64,000 bases of DNA from the sequence record MZ234031.1; one strand, given 5' to 3'. This document shows positions 23,509 to 58,738 of this stretch, in pieces. The notes under the pieces were generated by a model. It had not been told where the DNA came from. It saw nothing but the letters and a program-made list of their open reading frames with translations, and searched no databases. Within the stretch, counting starts at the first letter, position 1. Each line of letters begins with the position of its first letter. A program made the position numbers and the translations under genes. The DNA comes from Escherichia phage vB_EcoM-CHD94UKE2.

Positions 23509-23588
23509 TGAGTAATTTCCACAACGAACATGTGATGCAGTTCTATCGTAATAATTTTAAAACTAAAGGCGTCTTCGGACGCCAGTGA
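23508..23588 (+). CDS. stp: Stp peptide (activator of host PrrC anticodon nuclease), 26 aa
   Basis: [26 protein letters not shown]; 26 aa as for T4 Stp; start overlaps ndd stop (TAATG). Confidence 0.7.
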
Positions 23589-23595
23589 GGAAAAT

Positions 23596-23754
23596 ATAAA
23601 TATTGCAAAATTATTAGGAGTTATTTCATTTATTTGTTGGATAGTAGCATGTGTTTTAACTATCTGTATTGATGTCAGCAGTGTGTTTTCGCAAGCTTTA
23701 GCTCAGGGTATGTGTGCATATTTAACATTTGTGTTGTTATCTACTAATGATTAA
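23596..23754 (+). CDS. ac: ac-like small membrane protein; no canonical start codon (ATA at the expected start)
   Basis: Hydrophobic frame (N)INIAKLLGVISFICWIVACVLTICIDVSS... opens after TGA 23533-23535 with no ATG/GTG/TTG; SD GAGG 23587-23590 is 5 nt before ATA 23596. Confidence 0.35.
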   Translation: MNIAKLLGVISFICWIVACVLTICIDVSSVFSQALAQGMCAYLTFVLLSTND

Positions 23755-23887
23755 GAAAATCTTGGGCTATTCATTAGCCCTTGCTATTTTATTGATAGCA
23801 TTATATTACGGAATAATGTTCGGATTAATTCAAGTCGTGCTTTTCATTTCTGATGTTATTATGGCACTACATTCACTAGTATGGTAA
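23747..23887 (+). CDS. Small membrane peptide, 46 aa
   Basis: MIKKILGYSLALAILLIALYYGIMFGLIQVVLFISDVIMALHSLVW. Confidence 0.35.
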   Translation: MIKKILGYSLALAILLIALYYGIMFGLIQVVLFISDVIMALHSLVW

Positions 23888-23891
23888 ATTT

Positions 23892-51720: not shown

Positions 51721-52227
51721 ATGATGGATTTACAACTTATTACTACTGAAATGGTCGTTGAAGCATACGGTGATACTACAGATGGGATTTCTGTATTCAA
51801 AGGAAATCGTCGAGTTGGATATATCACCGATCTTAAGAAAGATTTAGCTAAGCAAGTCAAGCGGAAAACGACCATTAAAGAATATCGAAATCGTCGTCTT
51901 GAGCAAGCCCGTGATATGCTTCCTGATGCGGTTGAGGAGATGAAAGTCTTTTTAGAAAATCAGCTTGCGAAATATGATTGTGATGTGTTCATTAATCAGA
52001 CTCAACCTAATGTTCATATTAACAACTGTAAATGCTATATCATCGTTAATCCTTTAACGGGAAAACACCGCCTTGGGATTAGTAATCCAAATCGTAGTGC
52101 ATCAGATATGGCAGAAGATGTTGCGGCATGCTTTAAAATTTCTAAATCTCCGGCGGAACATCATATTTTAATTAACGGTCTTTCTCAAGACGATATTATA
52201 GAGGTTATTAAAACTTTATGCAATTAA
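51721..52227 (+). CDS. alc: Alc-like protein (blocks transcription of cytosine-containing DNA)
   Basis: 168 aa; size and position (after gene 63, before pseT cluster) match T4 alc. Confidence 0.45.
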   Translation: MMDLQLITTEMVVEAYGDTTDGISVFKGNRRVGYITDLKKDLAKQVKRKTTIKEYRNRRLEQARDMLPDAVEEMKVFLENQLAKYDCDVFINQTQPNVHINNCKCYIIVNPLTGKHRLGISNPNRSASDMAEDVAACFKISKSPAEHHILINGLSQDDIIEVIKTLCN

Positions 52228-57802: not shown

Positions 57803-58051
57803 ATGATTAAACAATTACAACACGCTCTTGAACTGCAACGAAACGCATGGAATAATGGTCACGAAAACTATGGCGCATCTATTGATGTTGAAGCCGAAGC
57901 TCTTGAAATCCTGCGTTATTTCAAACATCTGAATCCTGCTCAAACTGCATTAGCTGCTGAGCTTCAGGAAAAAGATGAACTTAAATATGCTAAGCCTTTG
58001 GCTTCTGCTGCACGAAAAGCAGTTCGTCACTTTGTGGTAACACTGAAGTAA
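57803..58051 (+). CDS. rIII: rIII lysis-inhibition accessory protein
   Basis: 82 aa MIKQLQHALELQRNAWNNGHENYG...; T4 RIII size and position after gene 31. Confidence 0.7.
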   Translation: MIKQLQHALELQRNAWNNGHENYGASIDVEAEALEILRYFKHLNPAQTALAAELQEKDELKYAKPLASAARKAVRHFVVTLK

Positions 58052-58409
58052 TTTACTGGAGATTCACTGCCTTAGTGTGAGCTAAAATCGAGGAGCCGTC
58101 GAACTGTCTGATTAATGATTTGCGAATCATTATAGTTTTAAGACCCCGGCAGTTTTACGGTGTACCTCTTGAATGTTATTCTTATAGCGGCAAGTGCATG
58201 CTACCCCGAGGTGATGGCCAATCGGGAGTACGCCTCAAGGCCTATATATATCCATCAGTATATATCTTATCCTCGAGAAATCGAACCCGGAACCTTTAAG
58301 CTAACGGTGTGCAACAGATAAGAGCTATAAGGTATGATGACGGGTTTATGGTTATCCTGGTCGTTAAATATCCAAAAACCTATGTTCCCCTTGAGGGCTT
58401 GCGCAGGCA
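58052..58409. other. 358 bp ORF-free, comparatively G+C-rich region with hairpins; candidate structured ncRNA or gene remnant
   Basis: No ORF of 60 aa or more on either strand; hairpin TAATGATT-TGCG-AATCATTA near 58113-58136; tRNA T-arm-like GGTTCCGGGTTCGATTTC on minus strand. Confidence 0.4.
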
Positions 58410-58451
58410 ATGCCAATAAGTCCTGCATTTTCATTTAAAAGAGAATTTATA

Positions 58452-58628
58452 ATGGCAAAACAAGCTAAAGCAAAGAAAGCAGTTGAAAAGAAAGTTGGTG
58501 ATTCTAAACGCGCTGGCTACAAGCGTGGGTCGAACTCTCGTATCAATCAAACTGTTGAGAAGATCATGCGCCGAGCACGTGCGGTTCTTCGAGATGATGC
58601 TTCTCGTTTTGGTAAGCAGAAAGCATAA
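58452..58628 (+). CDS. Small basic protein, 58 aa
   Basis: ATG 58452 (MAKQAKAKKAVEKKVGDSKRAGYKRGSNSR...); track ORF starts upstream at 58410. Confidence 0.4.
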   Translation: MAKQAKAKKAVEKKVGDSKRAGYKRGSNSRINQTVEKIMRRARAVLRDDASRFGKQKA

Positions 58629-58631
58629 GTT

Positions 58632-58660
58632 GAGGACTCCTTCGGGAGTCCTTTTTTATT
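58632..58660 (+). terminator. Rho-independent terminator (same hairpin as after soc)
   Basis: AGGACTCC-TTCG-GGAGTCCT then TTTTTTATTTT. Confidence 0.75.
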
Positions 58661-58680
58661 TTCCAAAGATTGCATAAAGT

Positions 58681-58713
58681 TGTTTACAGTATGGTTCCTT
58701 TGTGATAGTATTA
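58681..58713 (+). promoter_or_regulatory. T4-type early promoter
   Basis: GTTTACAGTATGGTTCCTTTGTGATAGTATTAT. Confidence 0.5.
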
Positions 58714-58738
58714 TCTTACACAAACAAAGGAGAATAAA

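Follow-up and report, generated by a model that had tools for sequence, protein, structure and literature searches.

The DNA analyzed here, a window of 64,000 nucleotides from Escherichia phage vB_EcoM-CHD94UKE2 (MZ234031.1), belongs to a Tequatrovirus and was 100% identical to Escherichia phage vB_EcoM-G3F7 across the 1.1 kb compared. Its genes cd, 31.2, 31.1, 31, rIII, 30.9, and 30.8 follow one another in this order on the plus strand, and the gap between rIII and 30.9 holds the subject of this study, a structured RNA module that we call the rIII-30.9 RNA. A first reading of the sequence alone (the original prediction) had singled out positions 58052-58409 as the largest stretch of the window free of open reading frames (ORFs), structured and comparatively rich in G+C. 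No ORF of at least 60 amino acids was found across these positions on either strand; under the same 60-amino-acid rule, the stretch nonetheless ranks second, behind 383 bp at 23509-23891, between ndd and the gene 39 topoisomerase subunit, which also lack an ORF of at least 60 amino acids. In the identical GenBank record, a 159-nt coding sequence (CDS) lies partly within 23509-23891, and that stretch is thus not truly non-coding. Because relatives annotate 30.9 as a 177-nt CDS, we placed its start at 58452 in preference to an in-frame ATG further upstream (58410); the true non-coding gap therefore spans 58052-58451, longer than first delimited. The G+C content is indeed raised: it is 0.357 across the whole window but reaches 0.42 in the gap and 0.46 in the RNA module. 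When aligned with T4 and other phages, the gap resolved into a mosaic of three modules, namely, module A next to rIII, the RNA module, and module C ahead of 30.9 (Table 1).

Comparison of its copies indicates that the central module belongs to a family of compactly folded RNAs, ~145 to 150 nt long, that had not been catalogued before. The helices were derived from 23 distinct copies, and a covariance model (R1) was then run over loci anchored on rIII or fetched by sequence pattern; in the window, R1 matched 58184-58329 with 174.9 bits. The proposed fold comprises eight helices and a kissing helix, K, all given in window coordinates in Table 1. A single junction joins four stems (P1, the P2-PF-PA arm, PC, and PD). 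It leaves no base unpaired in most copies, and in the window copy it has two extra bases. The closing stem P1 occurs as UAGC/GCUA, AAAC/GUUU, CAGC/GCUG, and ACAC/GUGU, with three of its four core pairs covarying. Along the long arm, 6 of the 10 pairs of PF and PA covary, PA being found as CCCGA/UCGGG, CCCAA/UUGGG, CCUGA/UCAGG, CUCUA/UAGAG, and CGGAU/AUCCG. The loop of PA is joined to that of PC by K, which exists in four versions, each of six Watson-Crick pairs (CGAUGG/CCAUCG, UGAUGG/CCAUCA, CUAUGG/CCAUAG, and CAAUGA/UCAUUG), and its pyrimidine-purine pair changes in step even among copies that share the same flanking and PC sequence. PC itself takes the forms UAUAUA, UAUACA/UGUAUA, UAUGCA/UGCAUA, UAUUCA/UGAAUA, UAUAUG/CAUAUA, and UACACA/UGUGUA. 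A compensated example of PD, CUUUAUC/GAUAGAG, is provided by phage PKM.Lu.22.1. Within the PD domain, the PE stem varies between UCGA/UCGA, CUGA/UCAG, CCGA/UCGG, CCA/UGG, and CAGA/UCUG, and its loop between GAAA, GUAA, UAAA, UAAU, and UAAUA, a GNRA loop in most copies. The 32-nt block that follows PE is invariant in the 23 distinct copies save for three loop positions, with an enlarged loop in phage EcS1; the sole covariation support for P8, which it contains, is its closing pair, A-U in all other copies and U-A in Erwinia phage Cronus. A systematic scan of the unpaired columns for further pseudoknots or long-range helices returned one 3-bp candidate, which had no covariation support. The segments CCUUUAAG and UAUGG may also be read as resembling a tetraloop receptor.

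Table 1. Features of the rIII-30.9 region and helices of the proposed RNA fold, in window coordinates
Feature	Position	Strand	Basis or remarks
Gene rIII	57803-58051	+	Lysis inhibition accessory protein, upstream neighbor; ORF list, phrog_1457 (E = 5e-44), annotation of relatives
Module A	58052-58176	+	Non-coding, common to T4; alignments to T4 and other Tequatrovirus phages; holds a hairpin (58113-58132) and a small motif (58059-58085)
RNA module (rIII-30.9 RNA)	58180-58332	+	~150 nt, including a closing-stem extension specific to the window
P1, closing stem	58180-58188 with 58324-58332	+	UCUUAUAGC with GCUAUAAGG; core of 4 pairs, 58185-58188 with 58324-58327
Long arm P2-PF-PA	58189-58242	+	Ends in a 12-nt loop
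P2	58189-58191 with 58240-58242	+	Sole support: U-G variants
Internal loop after P2			AAGUGCAU / CUCAAG
PF	58200-58204 with 58228-58233	+	C58231 bulged
PA	58205-58209 with 58222-58226	+	
K, kissing helix	58212-58217 with 58252-58257	+	UGAUGG (PA loop) with CCAUCA (PC loop); 3/6 pairs covary
PC hairpin	58245-58250 with 58259-58264	+	4/6 pairs covary
PD domain	58265-58323	+	Encloses PE and P8
PD	58265-58271 with 58317-58323	+	UCUUAUC with GAUAAGA; 4/7 pairs covary
PE hairpin	58273-58276 with 58281-58284	+	UCGA-GAAA-UCGA (span 58273-58284); 3/4 pairs covary
Least variable block	58285-58316	+	32 nt, ACCCGGAACCUUUAAGCUAACGGUGUGCAACA; holds P8 and junction strand GCAACA
P8	58285-58289 with 58305-58310	+	
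Module C	58333-58451	+	Leader of 30.9; alignment of 8 phages
Gene 30.9	58452-58628	+	58 amino acids, very basic, downstream neighbor; CDS annotated in relatives
Intrinsic terminator	58632-58653	+	Strong, after 30.9
Early-promoter-like site	58683-58711		After the terminator

Covariation across the family carries the case for this fold. In an alignment of 27 distinct copies, 99.4% of 1213 cells were standard pairs, and compensatory double changes were found at 24 of the 45 proposed pairs, against 7.4±1.8 when columns were shuffled (the observed value was reached in 0 of 500 shuffles) and 2 to 4 pairs in slid controls, in which partners were shifted by 1 to 3 columns. This alignment was fitted to the model and thus leans towards the structure, but a plain MAFFT alignment gave the same picture, with 16 of 37 pairs compensated against 4.7±1.2 in shuffles (again 0/500), and RNAalifold independently recovered the nested helices. 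R1 moreover recovered more divergent copies, from Serratia phages, Erwinia phage Cronus, and Escherichia phage EcS1, the last of which is ~70% identical to the window copy and scored 105 bits. The RNA lies on the plus strand, since its U-G pairs become A-C mismatches on the minus strand; the mostly GNRA form of the PE loops on the plus strand and the plus orientation of all flanking genes point the same way. Each of the six reading frames held at least one stop in all 26 distinct copies, and indels among copies were not multiples of three. The module is thus conserved as an RNA-level structure, or at least as a structure of the plus single strand, and not as a gene or pseudogene. Its covariation evidence is comparable to what has usually been published for validated classes of riboswitches and ribozymes, and we have very little doubt that it is a real and new structured RNA.

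These results give the original prediction a mixed outcome. It was right that an RNA-like element lies here, and its proposal of a small structured or stable RNA is strongly backed by covariation, but it erred on the strand, on the extent (58180-58332 only), on the likeness to a transfer RNA (tRNA), and in the features it cited. Its claim of structure holds for the central module and fails for the flanks, as modules A and C folded no better than shuffled sequence (z of -1.5 and +0.3, respectively) and lie outside the structured RNA. The hairpin TAATGATT-TGCG-AATCATTA is present, at 58113-58132, as are the GGCC segments, at 58216-58219 and 58239-58242. The T-arm-like string GGTTCCGGGTTCGATTTC exists as the reverse complement of 58277-58294, but it cannot be read as a T-arm, given that the minus-strand flanks of TTCGATT (CCGGG and TCTCG) are unable to pair; it is the complement of plus-strand PE (3′ half and loop) and P8 (5′ half), and the supposed T-stem bases form these two helices on the plus strand. 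A decayed tRNA was further contradicted by ARAGORN, which found no tRNA gene in the whole window, and by the absence of any Rfam tRNA hit at E up to 10; transfer-messenger RNA likewise gave no ARAGORN or Rfam match at gathering or permissive thresholds. The suggestion of an intron fragment fared no better, as no group I or group II intron was hit in Rfam and the module lies between two genes, rIII and 30.9, that are both intact. Decay of a protein gene, which the original prediction had named as a possible refutation, is countered by the stops described above, and its other caveat, that the region is just a long 5′ untranslated region, is too weak an account: T4 has the same untranslated region without the module, and the module occurs on its own in an unrelated phage.

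The module was found in ~412 of the ~990 phage records that matched the locus; the carriers span many genera of the Tevenvirinae and have hosts that include Escherichia, Klebsiella, Enterobacter, Citrobacter, Serratia, Erwinia, Edwardsiella, and Yersinia. Carriers include Tequatrovirus, Dhakavirus (JS98 and JS10), Jiaodavirus and other Klebsiella phages, Kanagawavirus (Edwardsiella phages PEi20 and PEi26, and Kosakonia phage 305), and T4-type phages of Enterobacter, Citrobacter, Serratia (Muldoon and PS2), Erwinia (Cronus), and Escherichia (EcS1). All T4-type copies that were examined, among them all those from metagenomes, are flanked by rIII and 30.9; 25 of 40 rIII-anchored loci had no copy according to R1. 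Exact-pattern scans of IMG/VR and metagenomes, followed by R1 on ~190 fetched loci, added only T4-type copies, and the sole copy outside these phages, that of PKM.Lu.22.1, came from blastn against the phage collection. No copy turned up in two exact scans of representative bacterial and archaeal genomes (GTDB) that used 20- and 21-mers of the invariant block, or in the complete E. coli genomes, all of which were searched with blastn, and blastn against plasmids yielded two 30-nt chance matches only. There is also no sign of a second copy in the window, where R1 gave one strong match and a weak one at 51964-52116 that is apparently due to chance (14.2 bits, E = 0.43). When the window was compared with Klebsiella or Edwardsiella phages, identity was 92 to 94% for the core of the module and 88 to 89% for the whole module, as against 71 to 75% for rIII and 66% for gene 31, and the flanks could not be aligned. 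This better conservation relative to its neighbors argues for selection on the RNA itself. In GenBank records, the spot is either unannotated or covered by a "hypothetical protein" CDS or a rho-independent "terminator" placed on the module (e.g., MZ234035, OL960580, and several Klebsiella phages). Such annotations are probably wrong; the "terminator" of SA21RB, for instance, is the PF/PA hairpin without a T run.

Comparison of close relatives suggests that the module is an optional accessory, gained and lost as a unit. T4 is without it, by a sharp indel bounded by P1. The single copy outside T4-type phages is in PKM.Lu.22.1, a 7-11-like member of the Grimontviridae with a 76-kb genome; this copy shares 83% identity with that of the window, and compensatory changes have preserved all its helices. 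Apart from the module, the 64-kb window and the PKM.Lu.22.1 genome have no nucleotide similarity, and no homologue of rIII or 30.9 was detected in that phage (for 30.9, by tblastn at E up to 10). Exactly these ~150 bp are missing from its sister PKM.Hi.22.6 (98% identical) and from phage 7-11. The insert is again bounded by P1 (AAACAGC...GCUGUUU) and sits between the stop of a gene for a protein resembling single-stranded DNA-binding protein (SSB) and a pre-existing intrinsic terminator ahead of an extracytoplasmic function (ECF) sigma factor gene. Neither the T4 nor the PKM.Lu.22.1 indel showed a target-site duplication. Since the module was dropped before unrelated, pre-existing downstream sequences in two phage families, its function is likely to be self-contained.

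Within T4-type phages, the slot between modules A and C was found in three states: occupied by the RNA module (~155 bp; this window, JS98, and others), occupied by an unrelated cassette of ~48 nt beginning TACTATCAYGCGTCAGAAAARGGTTATCTGT... (G157lw, PTE-Eco05, PECP20, and LF82-1), or empty (T4 and ECO07P2). The slot of the ~48-nt cassette corresponds to 58177-58333 of the window, and the 3′ half of this cassette with the adjoining module C folded no better than shuffles. The 30.9 leader is essentially unchanged across the three states, module C being nearly invariant in the seven Escherichia phages aligned, with or without the RNA, and more diverged towards its 3′ end in JS98. Module A is missing in LF82-1 and partly deleted in ECO07P2.

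Several other elements of the region deserve mention. A motif of ~27 nt directly after the rIII stop, at 58059-58085 in module A (GGAGATTCACTGCCTTAGTGTGAGCT; in PTE-Eco05, AGGTGATTCGCTACCTTAGTGCGGCT), recurs nearly unchanged between the SSB-like and ECF sigma genes of 7-11-like Grimontviridae, just before the terminator (positions 1651-1680 of locus L020, and the same intergenic region of loci L196 and L197). It is thus a second short non-coding element common to T4-type phages and Grimontviridae. Downstream of 30.9, the terminator and the promoter-like site (~58630-58715) together have the form of a promoter-terminator cassette of the PeSL type, apart from the RNA module, and a sub-threshold Rfam match to Atu_C8 (58584-58667) was merely the terminator at 58632-58653. 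The product of 30.9, gp30.9, had no Pfam or PHROG match in the scans made. It is far better conserved across genera than its neighbors, with ~93% amino acid identity over 44 aligned residues in Klebsiella-phage-like metagenome copies, against 70 to 76% for RIII.

We also compared the module with known families. None of the 4227 models of Rfam 15, which cover riboswitches, ribozymes, introns, and small RNAs, matched it at E up to 10 with lax filters; the whole window gave no gathering-level hit, and the EcS1 and PKM.Lu.22.1 copies gave only sub-threshold hits that were due to chance or driven by a terminator. No terminator-like site was found within 58052-58451, which speaks against an intrinsic terminator, and the module has neither the promoter-like nor the terminator-like site of a PeSL cassette. 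A miniature transposable element was rejected as well, as the terminal pairing covaries, no duplication was found, and R1 gave one strong match in the window.

In general outline, and not by structural comparison, the module resembles the purine and lysine riboswitches, which also combine a variable P1, arms held by a kissing helix, near-invariant junction and loop bases, and a leader position; unlike them, it has no Rfam riboswitch match and no accompanying expression platform, stands ahead of unrelated genes, and behaves as a free-standing cassette. With the GOLLD, ROOL, manA, and wcaG motifs it shares a conserved, covariation-backed complex fold carried by phages, whereas it has no match in Rfam 15, is far smaller than GOLLD or ROOL, and has so far been found only in lytic phages of Enterobacterales, in T4-type phages at one fixed locus. 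The PeSL cassettes of T4-type phages are, like the module, small intergenic non-coding modules of variable regions that are inserted, deleted, or replaced between close relatives, but each consists of an early promoter and a simple terminator stem-loop, in contrast to eight helices and a tertiary contact. The sole likeness to tRNAs or tRNA-like elements is the minus-strand TTCGA string, as the module has no cloverleaf or T-stem pairing. Species 1 and 2 of T4 (rnaC and rnaD) are small non-coding RNAs of T-even phages too, and they are cut out of longer transcripts; they belong to the tRNA cluster and are present in T4, whereas the module is absent from T4 and located elsewhere in the genome. 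In its architecture, the module is thus close to aptamers built on a junction and kissing loops and, in its genomic behavior, to PeSLs, and is a member of neither group. None of six 16- to 17-nt strings from the invariant blocks occurs in the searchable literature, keyword searches returned nothing on an RNA element between rIII and 30.9, and a follow-up paper on PeSLs (PMC4122927) does not mention rIII or 30.9. The family is apparently undescribed, although it might be listed, without a function, among the 10,006 candidates in a bulk catalogue of viral structured RNAs (PMC10690425).

How such a module would act can be outlined from its sequence and context. The RNA would be made as part of a message running from rIII to 30.9, given that its neighbors are all on the plus strand, that the stretch from rIII to the module holds no terminator-like site, and that in some genera the module begins ~10 nt past the rIII stop. 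It may then work as a self-contained module through its own fold, its most likely partner being either a small molecule or a conserved factor of the host or the phage. It could do so while still within the messenger RNA or once trimmed to a stable RNA, acting, for example, as a decoy or sponge. We consider it less likely that the module is a switch tied to the downstream gene. We hold this stand-alone reading with moderate confidence, at a probability of about one half. More speculatively, the module may be the first of a new functional class, an RNA of lytic enterobacterial phages that is exchanged horizontally and acts purely by its fold; in such a class, it may bind a small molecule or nucleotide signal (an "RNA sponge"), serve as a protein decoy against host defense or to take over a host factor, or be a new class of ribozyme. 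Several observations weigh against the stand-alone reading. Nothing convincing was found as a promoter of its own in T4-type phages, and a promoter-like match upstream of the PKM.Lu.22.1 copy occurs at chance frequency and is mostly also present in the module-less sister. The position upstream of a gene, or in PKM.Lu.22.1 of a terminator, would fit a riboswitch equally well. T4 thrives without the module, any function of which must thus be dispensable or dependent on the host. Finally, there is one copy only outside T4-type phages, and context independence rests on two indel comparisons.

The rival that comes closest is a cis-regulator of the riboswitch type, a leader aptamer that would act on termination or on the access of ribosomes to control 30.9 or, in PKM.Lu.22.1, the ECF sigma factor. 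The look of the module is that of an aptamer, with a P1 of varying sequence, near-invariant junction and loop bases, and side-by-side arms locked by a kissing loop, and it has the conserved, covariation-backed fold that an aptamer calls for. It always lies upstream of a gene in the same orientation; in PKM.Lu.22.1, P1 is followed after ~40 nt by an intrinsic terminator, which is ~25 nt ahead of the gene, and T4-type phages have a hairpin and then a U-rich run ahead of the 30.9 ribosome-binding site. However, the downstream leader or terminator is unchanged in the module-less T4, ECO07P2, PKM.Hi.22.6, and 7-11, from which it follows that no dedicated expression platform came with the module. 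Inspection, without a dedicated computation, revealed no conserved alternative in which the 3′ strand of P1 pairs with sequence further downstream; the genes downstream, 30.9 for a small basic protein and the ECF sigma factor gene, are unrelated in the two contexts known; and the Rfam riboswitch families gave no match at E up to 10. Such a switch is therefore possible but doubtful. We consider it unlikely that the module instead acts in cis on processing or stability, either as a nuclease-resistant fold that shields the message of the gene before it (rIII or, in PKM.Lu.22.1, the SSB-like gene) or as a self-cleaving ribozyme that separates cistrons. Its position ~10 nt after the stop codon in phages of the Citrobacter and Enterobacter types and in PKM.Lu.22.1 would suit this role, an action independent of context fits its cassette-like gain and loss, the conserved loops could serve the tertiary fold alone, and several small ribozymes are built as a multi-stem junction with docked arms. 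Yet no known ribozyme class matches in Rfam and no cleavage site can be proposed, the 3′ end in PKM.Lu.22.1 is already protected by the terminator hairpin, a near-invariant block of 32 nt across many genera exceeds the usual needs of nuclease blocking, and there is no positive evidence for either variant.

Autogenous control by gp30.9, with the module as its operator in the manner of ribosomal-protein leaders, would account for the constant place of the module upstream of 30.9 in T4-type phages and for a protein that is small, basic, and unusually conserved. It is nevertheless very improbable, as PKM.Lu.22.1 has the RNA and no 30.9 homologue, and T4 and many relatives have 30.9 without the RNA. 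An element that acts at the DNA level and whose hairpins would be incidental, be it an origin, a site of recombination, or a miniature mobile element of the selfish kind, is suggested by the variable presence of the module with sharp borders and by its ends, which form an inverted repeat (P1), and the rIII-30.9 region is reportedly a hot spot of modular shuffling in T4-type phages. We give this explanation hardly any weight: the terminal repeat is kept in pairing and not in sequence, and it covaries, a hallmark of a single strand selected for its fold; the G-U pairs fit one strand only; neither indel has a target-site duplication; there is one copy per genome, always in one orientation (the whole scan with R1 covered the window only); and 24 compensated pairs cannot be incidental. 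As for a decayed tRNA, intron fragment, or pseudogene, the minus-strand string containing TTCGA and the G+C-rich composition had pointed that way, but a module more conserved than its neighbor genes is the opposite of decay, and we regard this origin as refuted.

T4-type phages are among the best-studied viruses, yet the rIII-30.9 RNA is unannotated in them. With 24 compensated pairs and a covarying tertiary contact, it is a well-defined orphan RNA, and the R1 model offers a way to put right the annotation of several hundred phage genomes. Because T4 lacks the module while close relatives carry it, and because it has moved between unrelated phage families, clean genetics are possible. Phage elements that are accessory, mobile, and strongly conserved often prove to act in host takeover or counter-defense, and a case carried out by RNA only would be new.

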